A stretch of DNA of 64,000 nt, from NCBI RefSeq assembly GCF_029265695.1, contig NZ_JAJUHW010000001.1, positions 48,992 to 112,991 of the forward strand, read 5' to 3'. The notes beneath the pieces are model-generated. The model was not told the origin of the DNA, ran no database searches, and saw only the letters and a list, made by a program, of their open reading frames with translations. A program made the translations under genes and the position numbers. Shown piece by piece: positions 16,601 to 59,996 of the stretch (within the stretch, counting starts at the first letter, position 1; each line of letters starts with the position of its first letter). This DNA is from Gracilinema caldarium (GTDB lineage Bacteria > Spirochaetota > Spirochaetia > Treponematales > Breznakiellaceae).

Positions 16601-19600
16601 TTATTCCCGCCAGACCTCCGCAACACCGGGCAGCATACCTATCGATTCCAGCGCCCATGAATCGGCGCCGCTTGTAATCTGTGTTGCGGTCCGCACGACC
16701 GATTCACCACCGGGAACCGGAATGTGAATAAAAACCGAACAGGGGCCAGAGTGTTCAAAGAGGTGGTCCCGCAGGGGATATAGATTCTCTTCCCGTGTAC
16801 AGACTTCAGTTTTAAGCCGTATGTGAATTTCCCGGTATGATTTTTCGGTGAGGTTTTGGATATCCAGCATTTCATTGACAATAAAGCTTATTTTTTCGCC
16901 CCGGGAACGGTCTACCTTGCCTTTCAGGGCTACGATTTCATCAATATGAAGCTTGTCCTTGTATTTTTCCCATGCGTCGGAAAAGAGGGTCAGGTCTATT
17001 TGTCCCTTAAAGTCCGCAAGGGAAGAAAAGCCCATCCATTTCCCATTTTTGGACTGGTAGGGACGCAAGGACTTGATTTGCCCGAGGATAACATATTCCT
17101 TGTCGGGGCTGGAACGTTCCGGATGGGATAGATCTAGGCTTACCGACCGTTCCCAGGTCTGCCGGTAGTCATCCATGGGATGGCCTGAAAAATAAAAACC
17201 GATGAGTTCCTTTTCTATGGCAAGCTGTTCCTGTTTGTCCCAGTCAGGCGCAGGCTCAAACTCAAAATCGGGATATTCTTTTTCGCCGGAGTCTTCGAAA
17301 AGGCTCGACTGGCCGAATTTCTTGTCTTCCTTTTTGTTTTGGGCATATTCGACTGCCCGTTCCAGGTTAGCAAGGAGGGTGGGCCGGCTTTGGCCGAGCC
17401 TGTCAAAGGCTCCGGTCTTTATAAGCAGCTCTATGACCTTTTTACCAACCGTTTTAATATCTACCCGGTCTAAAAAGTCCATAAAGGTGCTATAGGGGCC
17501 GTCTTTTGCGCGTTGGCCTATGATTTCATCCGCCGCCGCGTCTCCCAAGCCCTTAATGCCTAAAAGACCGTAAATTATTTTGCCGTCCACAACAGTAAAA
17601 TATTTTTCTGAACGGTTGATGTCCGGCGGTTCTATGGTAAGCCCCATGCGGCGGCTTTCATCAATATATTCGGGAAGCTTGTCCGTGCTGGTGATTTCGT
17701 TGGTAAGGTTGGCCGCCATGAATTCGGCAGGGAAGTTGGCTTTTAGATAGGCTGTCCGGTAGGCGACTAACGAGTAGGCCGCAGCGTGGCTCTTGTTAAA
17801 GCCGTAGCCTGCAAAGGGAACCAAGATCTCGAAGATCCGGTCTGCATCGGCTTCGGAAAAGCCCCTCTTTTTTGCCCCTTCAATGAACCGGGCTTTTTCC
17901 TTGACCATGACATCGGCCTTCTTTTTTCCCATGGCCCGTCTCAGCAGGTCCGCTTGGCCAAGGCTGTAACCGCCAATGATCTGGGCTACCTGCATAACCT
18001 GTTCCTGGTAAACGATGACGCCGTAGGTTTCCTTAAGGATCCCTTCCAGACAGGGATCGGGATATTCGATCGGCCTGCGGCCCCATTTTGAATCGACAAA
18101 CTGGGGGATGTAGGCCATGGGACCTGGCCGGTACAGGGCGTTCAAGGCAATGAGGTCCTCTATTTTGTTCGGTTTTGCCTGTTTCAGGATGCTCTGCATG
18201 CCTGAGGATTCGAACTGGAATACGCAGGTGCTTTGGCCCTCTCCAAGGAGCTTATAGGTAGCTGGATCGGTTTCGCTGACTTTATCCGCATCAAAATCGG
18301 CATATATTCCGCCACGCTTACGGATCAGGTCCTGGGTGTTTTTTATGAGAGTCAGTGTTTTAAGTCCCAGAAAGTCCATTTTTACCAGTCCGCATTCCTC
18401 AATCTGGTCCATGGTAAACTGGGTTGCGACGGTGCCGGTTTTAGCATCCCGGTAGAGGGGCACATAGTCGGTAAGCTCGGTCTTTCCGATGACGATACCT
18501 GCCGCATGGAGACTTGAGTGCCTGTTTTTGTTTTCCAGCCGTTTAGCTATGGCAAAAAGTTCCTGGTATTTGGGATCCTCCGCAAGTTTTGCCAGCTCAG
18601 GCTCCTGTTCCATAGCTTTAGCCAGGGTCATTTTGGGATCCTCAGGGATAAGCTTGGCGATACGGTTGGCCTCTTCCAGGGGAATATCCAGCGCTCGGGC
18701 TACATCTTTTATGACCGCCTTAGCTTTGAGGGTTCCAAAGGTGATAATCTGCCCGACCCGTTCCCGGCCATATTTCCGTGTTACATAGTCGATAACCTCT
18801 CCCCGCCGTTCGAAGCAAAAGTCTACGTCAAAGTCTGGCATGGATACCCGTTCGGGGTTTAGGAAACGCTCAAAGAGGAGGTTGTACTTAAGGGGATCTA
18901 TGTCGGTAATCCGCATGGCATAGGCGACAATAGAGCCTGCACCTGAACCGCGTCCGGGACCGACGGGAATGTCATGTTCCTTTGCCCAGTTAATAAAGTC
19001 CGCCACTATGAGAAAGTAGCCGACGAAGTCCATTTTTATGATGATATCCAGTTCGTAGTCGGCCCGCTGCCGAATTTCTTCGGTAATTTCCGCATAGCGT
19101 TTTTTAAGTCCCTCGTAGGTCAGGTGCCTGATATAATCCGCTCCATTGGTAAAGGGCGGGGGAAGTTCAAAATCGGGAAGCAGCGGTCCGGGGAGGGGGA
19201 TGCTGGTATGGCACCGTTCGGCGATACGGACCGTGTTCAGTATAGCTTCGGGATATTCCGGAAAGAGGGCTGCCATTTCATCGCCGCTTTTAAGGTAAAA
19301 CTCACTTGTTTCAAAGCGCATACGGCTCAGTTCGTTCCGTTTTTTATTAGTCGAGATACATAAGAGTATGTCCTGGGCTACCGAATCTTCTTTATCGAGG
19401 TAATGGATATCGTTGGTTACCACGAGGGGAATACCGGTCCGTTTTGATAGGTTTACAAGGAGTGGATTTACCTTTTTCTGTTCCGGCAGGCCATGGTCCT
19501 GGAGTTCCAAATAAAAGTTGTCATCCCCCAGGATTTCCCGGAGTCTCCTGGCCCGCTGCAGGGCTTCCTGGGCTTTTCCTTCCAGAAGGAGGCTGGGAAT

Positions 19601-20029
19601 TTCGCCCCCTAGACAGGCAGAAAGGCCAATGAGTCCCTCATGGTATTTAACCAGTAGTTCCTCGTCTATCCGAGGTTTATAATAAAATCCTTCGGTATAG
19701 GAAAAGGATGACAGCTTCATCAGGTTCCGGTAGCCCGTTTCACTCGTTGCCAAGAGCACTAGGTGGTAGTATTTATTGCCTGTTTCGGATCCTTTTTTAT
19801 CGAAGCGGGAACCGGTGGTCATATAAAATTCACTGCCGATAATGGGGTGTATCTCTGCGGCCTTGCATTCTTTAAAAAACTTGAGGGCGCCGAACATATT
19901 GCCGTGGTCTGTTAAGGCCAGGTGTTTCATACCCAGGGCCTTTGCCTTAGTGATAAGACTTTTTACCGAGGCCGCTCCATCTAAAAGAGAATAGTCCGAA
20001 TGGACATGGAGGTGAACAAAATCAGTCAT
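16601..20029 (-). CDS. dnaE: DNA polymerase III alpha subunit
   Basis: PHP motif HLHVHSDYSLLDG, GPGRGSGAGS, MPDFDVDF, GYGFNKSHAAAY. Start moved to ATG 20029, downstream of TTGAGA-N17-TACAAT. Confidence 0.98.
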   Translation of the reverse strand: MTDFVHLHVHSDYSLLDGAASVKSLITKAKALGMKHLALTDHGNMFGALKFFKECKAAEIHPIIGSEFYMTTGSRFDKKGSETGNKYYHLVLLATSETGYRNLMKLSSFSYTEGFYYKPRIDEELLVKYHEGLIGLSACLGGEIPSLLLEGKAQEALQRARRLREILGDDNFYLELQDHGLPEQKKVNPLLVNLSKRTGIPLVVTNDIHYLDKEDSVAQDILLCISTNKKRNELSRMRFETSEFYLKSGDEMAALFPEYPEAILNTVRIAERCHTSIPLPGPLLPDFELPPPFTNGADYIRHLTYEGLKKRYAEITEEIRQRADYELDIIIKMDFVGYFLIVADFINWAKEHDIPVGPGRGSGAGSIVAYAMRITDIDPLKYNLLFERFLNPERVSMPDFDVDFCFERRGEVIDYVTRKYGRERVGQIITFGTLKAKAVIKDVARALDIPLEEANRIAKLIPEDPKMTLAKAMEQEPELAKLAEDPKYQELFAIAKRLENKNRHSSLHAAGIVIGKTELTDYVPLYRDAKTGTVATQFTMDQIEECGLVKMDFLGLKTLTLIKNTQDLIRKRGGIYADFDADKVSETDPATYKLLGEGQSTCVFQFESSGMQSILKQAKPNKIEDLIALNALYRPGPMAYIPQFVDSKWGRRPIEYPDPCLEGILKETYGVIVYQEQVMQVAQIIGGYSLGQADLLRRAMGKKKADVMVKEKARFIEGAKKRGFSEADADRIFEILVPFAGYGFNKSHAAAYSLVAYRTAYLKANFPAEFMAANLTNEITSTDKLPEYIDESRRMGLTIEPPDINRSEKYFTVVDGKIIYGLLGIKGLGDAAADEIIGQRAKDGPYSTFMDFLDRVDIKTVGKKVIELLIKTGAFDRLGQSRPTLLANLERAVEYAQNKKEDKKFGQSSLFEDSGEKEYPDFEFEPAPDWDKQEQLAIEKELIGFYFSGHPMDDYRQTWERSVSLDLSHPERSSPDKEYVILGQIKSLRPYQSKNGKWMGFSSLADFKGQIDLTLFSDAWEKYKDKLHIDEIVALKGKVDRSRGEKISFIVNEMLDIQNLTEKSYREIHIRLKTEVCTREENLYPLRDHLFEHSGPCSVFIHIPVPGGESVVRTATQITSGADSWALESIGMLPGVAEVWRE

Positions 20030-20079
20030 AGATACCCTATTGTAACGGCGAAAAGACCACATCTCAAGGGGTAAAATGA

Positions 20080-20108
20080 TTGCAATCGATTACGTTCGGT
20101 TGTATGAT
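20080..20108 (+). promoter_or_regulatory. Promoter of the LacI gene with an overlapping LacI-type operator
   Basis: TTGCAA-N17-TATGAT; palindrome GCAATCGATTAC 20082-20093 overlaps the -35 box. Confidence 0.6.
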
Positions 20109-20117
20109 AGGATGACC

Positions 20118-21146
20118 ATGGTTACCATCTACGATATTGCCAAAATTACCGGGTACTCTGCTCCGACCGTGTCGAAAGCGCTGAACAACCAGAGCGATAT
20201 TGGGCAAAAAACGAAGGAAAAGATATTAAAGGTTGCCAAAGAATTGGGTTATGTTCCCAATTCAAGCGCTAAGGGGCTTGTAACAAAAAAATCCTGGCTT
20301 ATCGGTCTTATCTACGAAGAAGATGACATGGGCATTGGTATAGAACATCCGCTTTTCTCCACCATTATAAATGCCTTTAAGCAGGAAATGGAATCAGAAG
20401 GTTATGAGCTCATTTTTATAGCCAGAAACTTAGGAGGCAAAAGGATGAGCCTCCTGGAACATTGCCGATACCGGCAGGTTGACGGGGTCTTGGTGGTGAA
20501 CGTGGATGCCAAAGATGAAGAAGTGAGGGATGTCACGAACAGCAACATTCCCTGTATATCATCCAACATTGTTTTCCCTGAAATCGCGACTGTAACTTCA
20601 GAAAATATTAAGCCCGCGGTGGAGGCGGTTCAGTATTTGTACAAATTAGGGCATAGGCTGATTGCCCATATTGCTGGTCCTCAGGATTCAATCGCTGCAG
20701 CAGGCTATGAGCGGCTTGAAGGCTATAAGGCTGGCCTCTTATCGCGACATCTCCCGATTCGGGATGAATTTATCATTATTTCCGAATACTGGAACGGCGA
20801 ATCGGGTTACAAGGCCATGATGGATTTATGGCGCCGAAATGAAAAACCGACGGCCATTTTCTGCGCCAGTGATATTATGGCCATGGGGGTCATGAATGCC
20901 TGTCATGATCTGGGATTAAGAATACCAGAGGATATTTCTATTATCAGTTTTGATGACAATCTGTGGGCGAGCTTCTCCCATCCTCCCCTCACTACCTTCC
21001 GGCAAGACAGGCAGGCCATCGGAAGGAAAGCTGCAGAACTTATGAAACTGTTGCTGAACGGTGAAAAAGTACCCTCCCGGGTGCTCATTCCGGTACAGCT
21101 AATAGAACGTGATAGCTGTGCCCCGCCACATGGTGTGCGCACTTGA
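20118..21146 (+). CDS. LacI-family transcriptional regulator (no adjacent sugar genes)
   Basis: VTIYDIAKITGYSAPTVSKALN, ELGYVPNSSAKGL, LTTFRQD; start ATG 20118 (alternative 20112). Confidence 0.92.
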   Translation: MVTIYDIAKITGYSAPTVSKALNNQSDIGQKTKEKILKVAKELGYVPNSSAKGLVTKKSWLIGLIYEEDDMGIGIEHPLFSTIINAFKQEMESEGYELIFIARNLGGKRMSLLEHCRYRQVDGVLVVNVDAKDEEVRDVTNSNIPCISSNIVFPEIATVTSENIKPAVEAVQYLYKLGHRLIAHIAGPQDSIAAAGYERLEGYKAGLLSRHLPIRDEFIIISEYWNGESGYKAMMDLWRRNEKPTAIFCASDIMAMGVMNACHDLGLRIPEDISIISFDDNLWASFSHPPLTTFRQDRQAIGRKAAELMKLLLNGEKVPSRVLIPVQLIERDSCAPPHGVRT

Positions 21147-21171
21147 CAGAAAGTGAAATTTCATGCAAAAT
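21143..21171 (+). promoter_or_regulatory. Promoter of the attenuated aminotransferase transcript
   Basis: TTGACA 21143-21148, N17, CAAAAT 21166-21171; predicted +1 near 21178, the A of an in-frame ATG. Confidence 0.7.
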
Positions 21172-21177
21172 AATAGT

Positions 21178-21252
21178 ATGTTTATACAGTTTTGTATGAC
21201 CAATTCTATTAGTCTCGCAGCAGCAGCCGCTATCCCGGAGGATCGCGGTTAG
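21178..21252 (+). CDS. Alanine-rich attenuator leader peptide MFIQFCMTNSISLAAAAAIPEDRG (or MTNSISLAAAAAIPEDRG from ATG 21196)
   Basis: GCA GCA GCA GCC GCT at 21217-21231, stop TAG 21250-21252, embedded in the attenuator hairpins; too short for the ORF track. Confidence 0.8.
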   Translation: MFIQFCMTNSISLAAAAAIPEDRG

Positions 21253-21310
21253 CTGATACCACAACATATCAGAGCCGTGGTCCTCCAGGGTGGGGATTGC
21301 GGCTTTTTTT
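21221..21310 (+). promoter_or_regulatory. Transcription attenuator (pause 1:2, antiterminator 2:3, terminator 3:4)
   Basis: 1:2 = 21221-21235/21240-21255; 2:3 = 21237-21250/21273-21286 (14 contiguous pairs including G-U); 3:4 = 21274-21285/21292-21303 plus T7 21304-21310. Confidence 0.85.
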
Positions 21311-21376
21311 ATGTCCATAGAGGACATCGAGAAGACCATCCCCATACATGGAAAACTTCGGCCCAAAGGAGTTTGT

Positions 21377-22723
21377 ATGAGAAGGGATATTGTGCATCCG
21401 GGGGCTGGTCAGTTGCGCTACGAAATCCGCGAAATAGTGTCCTTTGCCCGTGAGTTAGGTCGGTGGAATGTACCCATTACCTGGGAAAACATCGGAGATC
21501 CGGTTAAAAAGGGCGAACCCGTGGCTGAGTGGATTAAAGACATTGTTCGCCGCAGGGTAATGGAGGACCTTTCCTATGCTTATTCGGATACCGAAGGTGT
21601 CCGTGAAACCAGGGAATTTCTTGCTGGCTTAGCCAATCAGCGATCTCTCTTAAATCCCCTGGGAGCTATGGAATGTTCTGCAGCACCGCTAGTGGCAGAG
21701 GACATTATCTTTTTTAACGGCCTTGGAGATGCGGTTGCCAAGGTATTCGGATTCTTGCGCCGGGAAGCCCGTGTGTTAGGGCCCTCGCCGGCCTATTCCA
21801 CCCTGTCCTCCGCAGAAGCAGCCCACTCTGGCTACGATCACCTCACCTACCGGCTCGATCCAGAAAACAACTGGATGCCTGACCTGGAGGATGTGGAACT
21901 TAAGGTAAAATACAATGATGCCATTGCGGGGCTTTTGCTTATCAACCCTGACAATCCGACCGGTGCGGTGTATCCGGTAGAGGTGCTTACAAAACTTGTC
22001 GCCATTGCAAAAAAATATGGCCTTTTTATCATCGCCGATGAAACCTATGCAAATATTGTGTTTCCCGGCAATAAGACAGCTGCCCTTTCACAGGTCATTG
22101 GGGATGTTCCGGGGCTAGCCCTCAGGTCTATTTCCAAGGAAGTGCCTTGGCCTGGAGCCCGTTCAGGCTGGATTGAGGTGTATAACAAAAATGTGGATCC
22201 CCAGTTTTCCCGTTATGTTCAGAGTCTTGTGGATTCCAAACGGCTCGAAGTCTGCTCCACCACCTTGCCCCAGTTATGTATTCCGGACATTATGGGGGAC
22301 AGTCGGTATTCTTCTCATCTTGAACGCCGGGCTCAGATGTTTGCCGAACGGGCCGACGAGGCAGAGGATGCTTTTGCTTCGGTTAGGGGCTTACGGCTCA
22401 TAAAACCCCGGGGTGCCCTTTATGCAACGGCCCTCTTCGATACAAAACAGTTCTTTGATGGGAAAGAAGCTATGAGGCGCCTTCCGGTAGCAGACAAGGG
22501 GCTCGAAGATTTTATAACCGAGCGAACTAAAAACGTAGCGCCGGACAAACGATTTGTGTATTGGCTGCTTGCTGCGACGGGTATTTGCGTGGTTCCTCTT
22601 TCCGGCTTTGTGAGCGAGCTTCCGGGCTTTCGTTTTACCCTTCTTGAACAGGATAAGAAGAAGCGTACATGGATCTATAAAACTCTGGCGGAAAAGGCGG
22701 AAGAATACCTAGGAAGTATTTAG
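21377..22723 (+). CDS. Class I/II PLP-dependent aminotransferase, AlaA-like (putative alanine transaminase)
   Basis: LRYEIR...ENIGDP N-terminus resembling AlaA (YDIRG...LNIGNP), INPDNPTG, IIADETY, PLP-lysine motif SISKEVPWPGARSGW; AAGGAG SD 21366-21371. Confidence 0.85.
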   Translation: MRRDIVHPGAGQLRYEIREIVSFARELGRWNVPITWENIGDPVKKGEPVAEWIKDIVRRRVMEDLSYAYSDTEGVRETREFLAGLANQRSLLNPLGAMECSAAPLVAEDIIFFNGLGDAVAKVFGFLRREARVLGPSPAYSTLSSAEAAHSGYDHLTYRLDPENNWMPDLEDVELKVKYNDAIAGLLLINPDNPTGAVYPVEVLTKLVAIAKKYGLFIIADETYANIVFPGNKTAALSQVIGDVPGLALRSISKEVPWPGARSGWIEVYNKNVDPQFSRYVQSLVDSKRLEVCSTTLPQLCIPDIMGDSRYSSHLERRAQMFAERADEAEDAFASVRGLRLIKPRGALYATALFDTKQFFDGKEAMRRLPVADKGLEDFITERTKNVAPDKRFVYWLLAATGICVVPLSGFVSELPGFRFTLLEQDKKKRTWIYKTLAEKAEEYLGSI

Positions 22724-22768
22724 GCTCTCAGGCTTACTAATTCGGCTCTTTACTGGATATTACGAATA

Positions 22769-23764
22769 TTATTTGGAGTCGACTTGGCTTATAAGGCGGA
22801 TCCCGAGGCAGGTCGCCACGGCCCGCTCTCGGTTCAAAGTCCCATCGTGGACCGGATGGTTAAGGATTTCCGCAGGGCTATTCGGTTTTCGAATAACTAA
22901 GCTTGTGGATCCGCCGCCATCGAGGAGTAGGCCATCCCAGGCTCCAAGACCCAGTAGTATCTGGGCAGTTTCGTATTCCGTGGCTCCCACACTGTCCAGG
23001 AGCCGGCCGTCCACGGCAAGGAGTATGAGTGTTGTGCCATCCCGGCTCACGCCTACAGCGCTGCGTGGGGCTCGGCTTGTTCTGCCTTTAAGCGGAATAC
23101 CATCCTTAAGGACTTGATAAAAGCCGCCCACCCCATAGCGTACAGACTCAGCGTCTAAAACGTTTAAAACGGCAGCCGGGCTATCCACTTTTCCGGCTAT
23201 AGGGATATCTGTTTGCTCCGCTATACGGGCAATCCCATCCATTCCAATAAGCAGTGCGCCAAAGGCGGGCACTGGATCAGAGAATATGCGGCCCTCCTGT
23301 ACCGCCAAGCCTACAACACGCCGCTCTTCTCCCTCCCGGTCAGAAACGGGGTCAAAGGGGTTGGTATTAATGGCAACTGTACAGCCATATTGTTCTGCAA
23401 AACGGGATACCCTGACAGAAGGTACGAATCCGTAGGCGAGCGGTTCGGGCCCTACTACAATTTGGACTAAGGGGCTTGCAAGGTTTATCCTCACAGCCCA
23501 GAACGCGAGGGGCGGAAAGGAGATTCTACCTAAGGTATATACGAGAGGCGCAGAGTTTAGATTGTCTATATTTTCAGATCCCTGTGATTTTTCTTGTTCT
23601 AAGACTTTCCAGACTAATGGGGGTACCGCTAATTCCTGGTCCCTATCCTTGCCTCTGAGTATATCAATACCGATGTGTACAGTGGCGCAGGAGGACATAA
23701 TAAAAAGAATAAGCAGCGAGCCTAAGCGGGCTGCCAGCAATTTAGTAAAAGCTGGTTTTTTCGT
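22769..23764 (-). CDS. Phosphodiester glycosidase (NAGPA-like) family lipoprotein; start codon uncertain
   Basis: PRSAVGVSRDG, AVDGR, LLLDGGGSTSL, ERAVAT; lipobox MSSC; best SD-spaced start is an ACG at 23764. Confidence 0.75.
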   Translation of the reverse strand, partial: TKKPAFTKLLAARLGSLLILFIMSSCATVHIGIDILRGKDRDQELAVPPLVWKVLEQEKSQGSENIDNLNSAPLVYTLGRISFPPLAFWAVRINLASPLVQIVVGPEPLAYGFVPSVRVSRFAEQYGCTVAINTNPFDPVSDREGEERRVVGLAVQEGRIFSDPVPAFGALLIGMDGIARIAEQTDIPIAGKVDSPAAVLNVLDAESVRYGVGGFYQVLKDGIPLKGRTSRAPRSAVGVSRDGTTLILLAVDGRLLDSVGATEYETAQILLGLGAWDGLLLDGGGSTSLVIRKPNSPAEILNHPVHDGTLNRERAVATCLGIRLISQVDSK

Positions 23765-23795
23765 CGATCTATCCTTTTCTTTGTATATTATAACA

Positions 23796-24917
23796 ATGGG
23801 GCTAGCAAAAACAATTACATGGGGGCTATGTGGCATGGTTCTTCTTTCCTGTCAAAGTATGAAAGCAAATATTGATGTGAGGGGTCTAAAAGACTATGCC
23901 CGTTCAATTGAACTTATGTTGGGCCGGGAACAATCTTTGGTACCCATTTTGGATAATACAGAAGAGCCGGAGAATCAGGCCTATGAACCAAATAGTAGGA
24001 CCATCCAAAATGATATGAAACCGGCTGAACGGCAACCCTTGAAACGTTGGAAGCTGTCTTTGAGTGGCAAACAAGTTTTGGGTGAGCGCTTGAAATTTCC
24101 TGCTCCCCAAGGGTACCCGCTGGGTGACAGTTATTTTTATTATTTTCATACCAGAAGAGAAGGACCAATGAAAGTAATTCTCTGGGCGCCAGGTTTTGGT
24201 GTATCGGATCTCGCATTTTTATTTATAAAAGAATTTTTCCGGATAGAACTTTCCTCTGGCTGGGACGTTTTGGTTTGGATCCCTCCCTATCATTTGGATC
24301 GGCAAATGCCAGGCAAAAAGGCCGGAGAAGGCCTTATTACTCCAGATCTCATGAGTTTTAGAAACAATATGAACAATGCGGTCCACGAACTAGCTCTAGG
24401 TCTCTCATGGCTTAAAAAGGAAGGATATGAACGGATAGGAGCTTGGGGTGGCAGCTTTGGTGCGGCAAGTCTCCTTCTTCTTTCCCAACAGGAGGACTTT
24501 GACCATATAGTATTGATGATTCCCCTCATTGATTGGAATACTATCTGGGACTCTCTTCCTTTTTCAGGGATCAGGCAACAGTTTGAGTCCAAAGGGGTGG
24601 ATCCACAAACGGTGGCATCGGTCTTTGCTTCAGTAAGTCCCCGATATGCAAAGTATCCTCAAATTCCATCTGATAGAATCTTATTTCTCCTTGCCGATTA
24701 TGATCAGCTTACACCTTTAGATGTGAGCGAATCTTATATTGCATCCTTAGGCTTTGGAGACAACCAGGAACCAGTAGTGCGCCGTTTTAAGGAAAGCCAC
24801 AGTACCATATTGCTTAACCGAGGGGTATATAAAGAATACCAGAAGTTTTTAGAACAGATAGATAAGCCAATTTCAGAAATCCCAAAAGCTGTGTCAATTT
24901 CTCAAGGCGATCACTAG
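23796..24917 (+). CDS. Alpha/beta-hydrolase fold lipoprotein
   Basis: Lipobox VLLSC, nucleophile elbow GAWGGSFGA, ADYDQL, ESHSTIL; start at ATG 23796, 6 nt after TATATT. Confidence 0.75.
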   Translation: MGLAKTITWGLCGMVLLSCQSMKANIDVRGLKDYARSIELMLGREQSLVPILDNTEEPENQAYEPNSRTIQNDMKPAERQPLKRWKLSLSGKQVLGERLKFPAPQGYPLGDSYFYYFHTRREGPMKVILWAPGFGVSDLAFLFIKEFFRIELSSGWDVLVWIPPYHLDRQMPGKKAGEGLITPDLMSFRNNMNNAVHELALGLSWLKKEGYERIGAWGGSFGAASLLLLSQQEDFDHIVLMIPLIDWNTIWDSLPFSGIRQQFESKGVDPQTVASVFASVSPRYAKYPQIPSDRILFLLADYDQLTPLDVSESYIASLGFGDNQEPVVRRFKESHSTILLNRGVYKEYQKFLEQIDKPISEIPKAVSISQGDH

Positions 24918-59922: not shown

Positions 59923-59996
59923 TCGGGCAAGGCGGACTCGAACCGCCGACCCCAAGTCCCCCAGACTTGTACGCTAACCACCTGCGCTATTGCCCG
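59923..59996 (-). tRNA. tRNA-Pro(GGG), CCA not encoded
   Basis: CGGGCAA acceptor stem, anticodon arm CAAGT-CTGGGGG-ACTTG, T arm GGCGG-TTCGAGT-CCGCC; 74 nt. Confidence 0.97.

Follow-up and report, generated by a model that had tools for sequence, protein, structure and literature searches.

A 64,000-nucleotide (nt) stretch of Gracilinema caldarium DNA (contig NZ_JAJUHW010000001.1, positions 48,992 to 112,991; hereafter the window, numbered from its first letter) contains a short leader with five consecutive alanine codons directly upstream of a gene for a class I/II aminotransferase. We consider it likely that this leader is a ribosome-mediated transcription attenuator, which would read the supply of charged tRNA-Ala and control the aminotransferase. 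It has the parts of a classical attenuator: a leader open reading frame (ORF), a run of codons for one amino acid, an intrinsic terminator, a mutually exclusive antiterminator, and a stop codon placed so that a ribosome of the assumed footprint would cover the antiterminator's 5' arm. Its anatomy is conserved in orthologous loci, and both of the competing helices covary. A first-pass annotation, made from the letters alone, had proposed an alanine-sensing attenuator at this place. That reading holds on the comparative evidence, and alanine-dependent read-through is what the layout would predict.

Promoter and leader reading frame

The promoter, the short ORF with its five alanine codons, the stop codon and the start codon of the aminotransferase all lie where the first-pass annotation had placed them. 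All features are on the + strand unless stated otherwise. The -35 hexamer TTGACA (21143-21148) overlaps the TGA (21144-21146) of the upstream LacI-family gene, and a 17-nt spacer separates it from the -10 hexamer CAAAAT (21166-21171). The pair matches the consensus at 10 of 12 positions and ranks first among the promoter-like sites in a consensus scan of 19500-24000.

The leader peptide ORF (MFIQFCMTNSISLAAAAAIPEDRG, then stop; 21178-21252) has 24 codons followed by TAG at 21250-21252. Within it are the proposed sensing codons, GCA GCA GCA GCC GCT (21217-21231). The frame has in-frame ATGs at 21163, 21178 and 21197. The first sits within the promoter spacer and the last is replaced by ATA in several relatives (L083, L085 and others), which leaves 21178 as the sole in-frame ATG kept in all close relatives. 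It starts six bases past the -10 hexamer, and no Shine-Dalgarno sequence lies upstream of it. No other leader with a homopolymeric codon run was found in the window.

The same arrangement is found in related genomes. The open frame, with its ATG and its stop, is conserved in all 18 spirochaete leaders (24-28 codons). TTGAC[ACG] stands at an equal distance in 17 of the 18, and in 17 of them it is followed by N16-17, a -10-like hexamer, a gap of 6-7 nt and the in-frame ATG, again with no usable Shine-Dalgarno sequence. Because the distance from the -10 hexamer to the ATG is conserved without a usable Shine-Dalgarno sequence, the leader peptide is likely to be read from a leaderless mRNA that begins at or beside 21178. 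The first-pass annotation had raised leaderless translation as a possibility, and the relatives bear this out: the equivalent of the 21178 ATG is at the same spacing in nearly all of them, while the 21197 ATG is dispensable.

Alternative helices of the leader RNA

Four segments of the leader can pair in mutually exclusive ways. Segment 1 (21221-21235) consists of the 3' part of the alanine run and the next codon; its partner is segment 2 or, in a long hairpin, segment 4. Segment 2 (GGAGGAUCGCGGUU; 21237-21250) covers the last four leader codons and the first base of the stop codon, and is the 5' arm of the antiterminator. Segment 3 (AGCCGUGGUCCUCC; 21273-21286) is common to the antiterminator, where it pairs with segment 2, and to the terminator, where it pairs with segment 4 (UGGGGAUUGCGGCU; 21291-21304), the terminator's 3' arm. 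The U7 tract of the intrinsic terminator occupies 21304-21310.

Folding confirmed the 1:2 hairpin at 21221-21255 (free energy, dG, -20.4 kcal/mol). It also confirmed the 2:3 antiterminator, in which 21237-21250 and 21273-21286 form 14 pairs (dG -30.9 kcal/mol) that enclose a tip hairpin, CUGAUA/UAUCAG (21253-21272; stem arms 21253-21258 and 21267-21272). The tip hairpin is kept in L081 and L082 with an altered stem sequence. The 3:4 terminator had been described as 12 pairs plus U7; the hairpin and the U7 stand, and the pair number does not, as the stem has 13-15 pairs (21271/21273-21286 with 21291-21306; dG about -21.5 kcal/mol). This hairpin ranks first among terminator-like sites in 19500-24000 (15 pairs, 7 G-C), in a consensus scan that proves nothing alone, the number of its terminator-like and promoter-like sites being not above chance.

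The 141-nt leader as a whole folds with a dG of -58.3 kcal/mol, against -35.2 +/- 3.9 for shuffled sequences (z -6.0), and none of 200 shuffles folded as well. Its unconstrained minimum free energy fold is one long hairpin (21219-21304), in which the 2:3 helix is enclosed by pairing between the alanine-codon segment and segment 4. To represent a translating ribosome, a 28-nt block (an assumed footprint size) was masked during folding. With the A site on alanine codons 1-4, 12-14 of the 14 antiterminator pairs formed and none of the 13 terminator pairs. With the A site on alanine codon 5 or on the stop codon, all 13 terminator pairs formed.

A further hairpin, AUGUCC-AUAGA-GGACAU (21311-21327; dG -6.9), lies directly 3' of the U tract. 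A hairpin at this place, with differing stem sequences, is present in 10 of 11 Treponema/Breznakiella-clade leaders and absent from the distal spirochaete clade. A covariance model of the whole element found no second copy in the 64-kb window; given this, and the lack of another homopolymeric-codon leader there, a repeat or mobile element was rejected as an explanation.

Proposed mechanism

The transcript would begin about 6 nt past the -10 hexamer, on or beside the 21178 ATG, and the first ribosome would load on the leaderless 5' AUG. When Ala-tRNA is scarce, the ribosome would stall with its A site on one of alanine codons 1-4, covering segment 1 and leaving segment 2 free. Segment 2 could then pair with segment 3 as the antiterminator, segment 4 would be left without a partner, and RNA polymerase would read into the aminotransferase gene. 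When Ala-tRNA is plentiful, the ribosome would reach the TAG at 21250, at the 3' end of segment 2, and mask that segment. The 3:4 terminator would then form and transcription would end at the U7 tract (21304-21310). RNA that is not being translated is predicted to adopt one of two states, the 1:2 and 3:4 helices together or a single long hairpin reaching to the U tract, and both should terminate.

Conservation of the alanine codons in orthologous loci

Upstream regions of aminotransferase orthologs were collected from 80 loci of species-representative genomes, 80 loci of metagenomes and ten loci from contigs encoding closer homologues. Protein identity to the aminotransferase of the window is 98% in a Treponema sp. 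metagenome-assembled genome, 73% in Breznakiella homolactica and 71% in Treponema primitia ZAS-2. A run of at least 4 GCN codons occurs upstream in 53 of 150 ortholog loci, against 1.1 in shuffled sequences and 10 in the region downstream of the gene; the reverse-complement strand is no useful control here, since a (GCN)n run appears there as (NGC)n. It is this comparison across species that speaks decisively against a chance arrangement. The runs sit in short ORFs that end 45-65 nt ahead of a T run. This pairing of a poly-Ala leader ORF with a T run precedes orthologs at only 50-59% protein identity, in both spirochaetes and Desulfuromonadales.

The first-pass annotation had expected that an alignment of these regions would preserve the alanine run with synonymous changes and both helices with compensatory ones. 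That is the outcome, and the leader stop codon falls at segment 2 in 17 of 17 leaders. The run has 4-7 alanine codons in the orthologs. Its G and C positions are invariant and its third positions vary (A 42, C 23, G 22, T 9), a pattern that indicates a coding constraint rather than a base-pairing constraint.

Three architectures can be distinguished. The spirochaete architecture, at about 22 loci, has 24-28 codons, of which 4-7 encode alanine, and its peptides end in RGI[AD]G or IPEDRG. A stem followed by at least 5 T is present in all 21 spirochaete leaders that were extracted for alignment, the T run of L010 being weak. The Desulfuromonadales-type architecture, at about 40 loci (L023-L129, for example L060, L075, L078 and L079), has an ORF of the form MxxxAAAA(T/R)(R/Q)A(I/F)QAA...VHH.. 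led by a Shine-Dalgarno sequence. Its promoter reads TTGACA...TGTGATAAT, its segment 2 is CUGUCCAU and its terminator is AGGCCATGGACAG...GTCCATGGCCTTTTTT; unlike the spirochaete leaders, it has a 35-45-nt 5' untranslated region with a Shine-Dalgarno sequence. The third architecture, found at few loci, consists of AAAxAAAxAAA or very alanine-rich leaders. Four loci (L058, L115, L128 and L127) carry variants with alanine triplets (..KAAAPAAAEAAAS..) or with 14 alanines in 35 codons, and no clear T run was detected in L058, L115 and L128.

One close ortholog (L169, 71% identity) has no alanine leader in the region 300-700, where a promoter-like site stands directly before the gene. Upstream in the same locus is a 125-residue ORF built of TTATTACYGGT-like tandem repeats.

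The leader might instead be a general sensor of translation stress. In that case any slowing of ribosomes, by antibiotics or by global starvation, would open the antiterminator, and the alanine run would be incidental or a by-product of a GC-rich segment 1. GCN repeats are indeed a natural source of GC-rich sequence for an arm pairing with segment 2 or 4, and the masking folds predict that any stall in 21217-21228 would antiterminate; the upstream ORF (uORF) of mycobacterial whiB7, discussed below, responds to many kinds of stall, and ermC-type leaders offer a parallel. However, the run is specifically alanine in three unrelated architectures whose RNA segments differ, and the free third positions beside a fixed GC follow the code, not the pairing. 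The regulated gene is also always from one aminotransferase family, and the solved structures nearest to that family are of alanine aminotransferases. A general stress sensor is the best of the alternatives and still seems improbable to us beside an attenuator that is specific for alanine.

Covariation of the helices

Seventeen spirochaete leaders were aligned with MAFFT. In this alignment 93.7% of the terminator cells are paired, and sliding the partners lowers this to at most 54.5%. Compensatory changes are present at three pairs, and none of 500 shuffles reaches the covariation score. For the antiterminator the figure is 79%, with five compensatory pairs. Its shortfall is an artefact of alignment: the distal clade has an additional A-U pair, which MAFFT places out of register. 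When 20 leaders were instead aligned with the guidance of a covariance model, pairing in the antiterminator rose to 93.9% (36-55% with slid partners) and 4 of its 14 pairs were compensatory; an alignment made in this way is fitted to the structure and biased towards it. The distal leaders are all located where expected by a covariance model built from the close clade (E values 5e-7 to 0.025).

Folding each sequence separately, with no alignment, gave the same topology. In each of the 17 spirochaete leaders, the terminator's 5' arm is sequestered wholly or for the most part (10-13 of its 11-14 nt; 16 of 20 in L007) by a segment with its end at the leader's stop codon. Most of the approximately 33 Desulfuromonadales-type leaders show this stop-codon-anchored topology too. 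RNAalifold independently predicts the state with 1:2 plus 3:4, with 4 pairs of the 1:2 hairpin present in 16-17 of the 17 sequences. Within the close clade both helices are about 96% paired, mostly by one-sided changes that G-U pairing tolerates, and such changes are expected because segment 3 serves two partners.

Strong and conserved alternative helices could serve any antitermination mechanism, so we considered a non-translated RNA switch, either a riboswitch or a protein-binding leader, in which the presence of the small ORF would be a coincidence. Conservation of the peptide's C-terminal part does indeed stem from RNA pairing and not from peptide function. This is seen in L170 (520-650), where the stop codon comes one codon past the alanine run (MIVRMCYVQIQLAAAAAAP, then stop) and segment 2 lies just 3' of it with the helices kept; the shifted stop implies that the conserved peptide tail elsewhere reflects a constraint on the RNA and not on the peptide. 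Against a switch of this kind stand the frame of 24-28 codons in all 18 leaders, with its ATG 6-7 nt past the -10 hexamer and its stop at segment 2, and the synonymous variation of the alanine codons. Furthermore, the sequence 5' of the alanine run is not conserved as RNA, and the alignments hold no conserved unpaired pocket.

Known RNA families do not favour a switch either. Rfam gave no relevant match at the gathering score in the whole window or in 36 ortholog loci, and a search of 21050-21450 with E values up to 10 found no leader family and no T-box (RF00230), so that no relevant family appears at any threshold. The weak matches that did occur (SNOR75, MIR7526 and BcKCsr2) are far below their gathering scores and were put down to chance. 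A T-box riboswitch with an alanine specifier was rejected on the missing RF00230 match and on the length of the leader, which is only about 130 nt. Overall we judge a non-translated switch very unlikely, and a translated leader the better account of the conservation.

It is less likely again that the poly-Ala peptide is a functional small protein co-transcribed with the aminotransferase. The small ORF is conserved, and some attenuator peptides act in trans, as is reported for peTrpL in Sinorhizobium. Outside the alanine run, however, the peptide is not conserved between clades, and its conserved C-terminus follows the RNA pairing, while L170 does without that part of the peptide.

The aminotransferase and neighbouring genes

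The gene controlled by the putative attenuator encodes a pyridoxal phosphate (PLP)-dependent class I/II aminotransferase of 448 residues (21377-22723). A 66-nt spacer separates the U tract from its ATG at 21377 and contains the Shine-Dalgarno sequence AAGGAG (21366-21371); comparable GGAG motifs are found in the orthologs. In L015 the sequence CCCCGATGGGAACCACGGC, 3' of the terminator and 40 nt ahead of the start codon of the aminotransferase, matches the terminator's 5' arm and loop exactly as their reverse complement, and it overlaps the Shine-Dalgarno sequence of the aminotransferase. This hints at an extra, translational layer of control in that lineage.

The protein passes only one NCBIfam model, NF005334, an equivalog with a generic name (610.6 bits against a cut-off of 443). 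Its nearest solved relatives are distant: E. coli AlaA (YfbQ, 4cvq; E 4e-30) and the alanine aminotransferase of Pyrococcus furiosus (1xi9; E 4e-29). In the alignment with AlaA, the PLP-lysine motif SISK matches LSK, and the N-terminal region Y-x-I-R...NIGDP is aligned. The likeness to AlaA/YfbQ remarked on in the first-pass annotation therefore stands as a distant family resemblance, while membership of the AlaA type does not, as the protein belongs to an equivalog of its own. Some orthologs are labelled "alanine transaminase" in certain sources, by automatic annotation. The regulation suggests that this enzyme may be the cell's alanine-forming transaminase, a role read from the leader in front of the gene.

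The longest ORF for the aminotransferase begins at a GTG at 21290, within the terminator (21290-22723), and several database homologues, including P0006 and P0007, have been called 22-25 residues too long (470-473 residues). Such overlong starts swallow part of the attenuator and so hide the element from view.

Upstream of the leader and on the same strand is the LacI-family regulator gene (20076-21146). Divergent to it is a gene for the DNA polymerase III alpha subunit (dnaE-like, 1153 residues; 16601-20062, - strand). The sole Rfam match in the window is a tRNA gene at 59923-59996 (- strand).

The leader travels with the aminotransferase and not with the LacI-family gene, to judge from gene order: it is kept where that gene is missing and a divergent dnaE flanks it directly (L084), and where unrelated or oppositely oriented genes lie upstream (L081, L082, L166-L168 and L170). 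The hairpin and U7 lie on the same strand as the LacI-family gene, the stem about 125 nt and the U tract about 165 nt past its stop codon, but the notion that they are nothing more than its terminator, with the ORF and promoter there by chance, was rejected as scarcely credible because the synteny comparison contradicts it and analogous elements precede orthologs in another phylum. Very probably, the attenuator's terminator also stops transcripts from the LacI-family gene.

Weight of the evidence and significance

Several observations weigh against an alanine-sensing attenuator or soften parts of it. The -10 hexamer CAAAAT is weak, and promoter-like sites in 19500-24000 are no commoner than chance. 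The unconstrained minimum-energy fold includes the 2:3 helix, and its termination is assumed; the 1:4 pairing in that fold is conserved only in the closest clade, L015 and L017. Against shuffles of the same composition, the 1:2 hairpin does not stand out clearly (z -2.4 to +1.0). Because alanine codon 5 is very near segment 2, a ribosome stalled on it is predicted to cause termination. As for the enzyme, NF006230, the model for alanine aminotransferase, gives it 129.4 bits where the cut-off is 534, and the name of NF005334 is generic and gives no substrate. The sequencing runs that match the window are all DNA metagenomes (microbial mat, anaerobic digester and hot spring) and none is RNA.

Taken with these points, the element is probably an addition to the classical leader-peptide attenuators, apparently one that has not been catalogued. 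Beyond the single locus, we lean towards an uncatalogued family of alanine-specific attenuators that would regulate an alanine-forming aminotransferase directly and in cis and would come in at least three architectures: the leaderless spirochaete leaders, the Shine-Dalgarno-led Desulfuromonadales leaders (MxxxAAAA..QAA..VHH) and the AAAxAAAxAAA leaders. The mechanism itself is textbook. What appears to be new is the direct poly-Ala specificity in cis, the functional hint for NF005334 and the conserved leaderless design.

To our knowledge, alanine is the one abundant proteinogenic amino acid for which almost no classical cis-acting RNA control of synthesis has been described, and leader-peptide attenuators are, as far as we know, barely documented in Spirochaetota and Desulfuromonadales. 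A direct poly-Ala leader would extend the leader-peptide paradigm to a new amino acid and to both of these groups. If the reading is right, the regulation would assign a role in alanine synthesis to the NF005334 aminotransferases, giving a testable functional annotation to a widespread and generically named family. It would also mean that spirochaetes use leaderless sensory ORFs for transcription attenuation, and would offer a clean natural example of such an ORF coupled to an intrinsic terminator.

Comparison with known systems

The closest likeness in layout is to the classical amino acid leaders of Proteobacteria: trpL, hisL, leuL, thrL, pheL and the ilv leaders (RF00513, RF00514, RF00512, RF00506 and RF01859). 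Like them, the element has a leader ORF with a run of cognate codons, the 1:2, 2:3 and 3:4 helices, an intrinsic terminator before the structural gene, and a stop codon that would let the ribosome mask segment 2. Unlike them, it uses alanine codons, precedes a single aminotransferase gene and has no sequence or covariance-model similarity to the Rfam leader families. Its hosts are Spirochaetota (Desulfuromonadales for the other architecture), and the spirochaete version is apparently leaderless rather than led by a Shine-Dalgarno sequence.

The aminotransferase shares with AlaA (4cvq) and with the Pyrococcus enzyme (1xi9) the class I/II PLP aminotransferase fold family and an aligned S-x-S-K PLP-lysine motif, and differs from both in its separate NCBIfam equivalog and its distant similarity. 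E. coli alaA is under Lrp control and is not known to be regulated by attenuation.

Searches of Rfam and of the full-text literature, as the first-pass annotation had advised, found no earlier description of a poly-Ala leader before an aminotransferase; the literature gave only whiB7 and poly-Cys leaderless ORFs. The first of these makes out of date the first-pass annotation's remark that no characterised attenuator senses alanine. The uORF of mycobacterial whiB7 is enriched in alanine codons, and alanine depletion stalls ribosomes on it and induces whiB7 by antitermination, after which WhiB7 activates the alanine aminotransferase aspC (Poulton et al., PMC10274678). It is an experimentally demonstrated alanine-tuned attenuator, which also responds to many stalls and antibiotics (PMC10274678). 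Both systems have a uORF, a rho-independent terminator and an antiterminator, and in mycobacteria the output likewise raises an alanine aminotransferase. The whiB7 uORF is longer and mixed in composition and acts through a transcription factor, whereas here a tight run of 4-7 alanine codons would act in cis; the two have no sequence relationship and belong to different phyla. A whiB7-type uORF attenuator was ruled out for the window on the downstream aminotransferase and the 24-codon uORF with its tight alanine run. The only characterised alanine-tuned attenuator that we found is thus an indirect one, working through WhiB7.

The second parallel is the polycysteine leaderless short ORFs of mycobacteria, on which a stalled ribosome remodels the downstream RNA with an effect on translation (Canestrari et al., bioRxiv 10.1101/834739). 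They share with the present element a sensory short ORF at the 5' end of a leaderless mRNA and a codon run for a single amino acid. The present element differs from them in having a canonical intrinsic terminator, and it is predicted to act on transcription. Alanine sensing by attenuation and leaderless sensory ORFs are each known from these mycobacterial systems, and the leader described here would combine the two in their simplest form.

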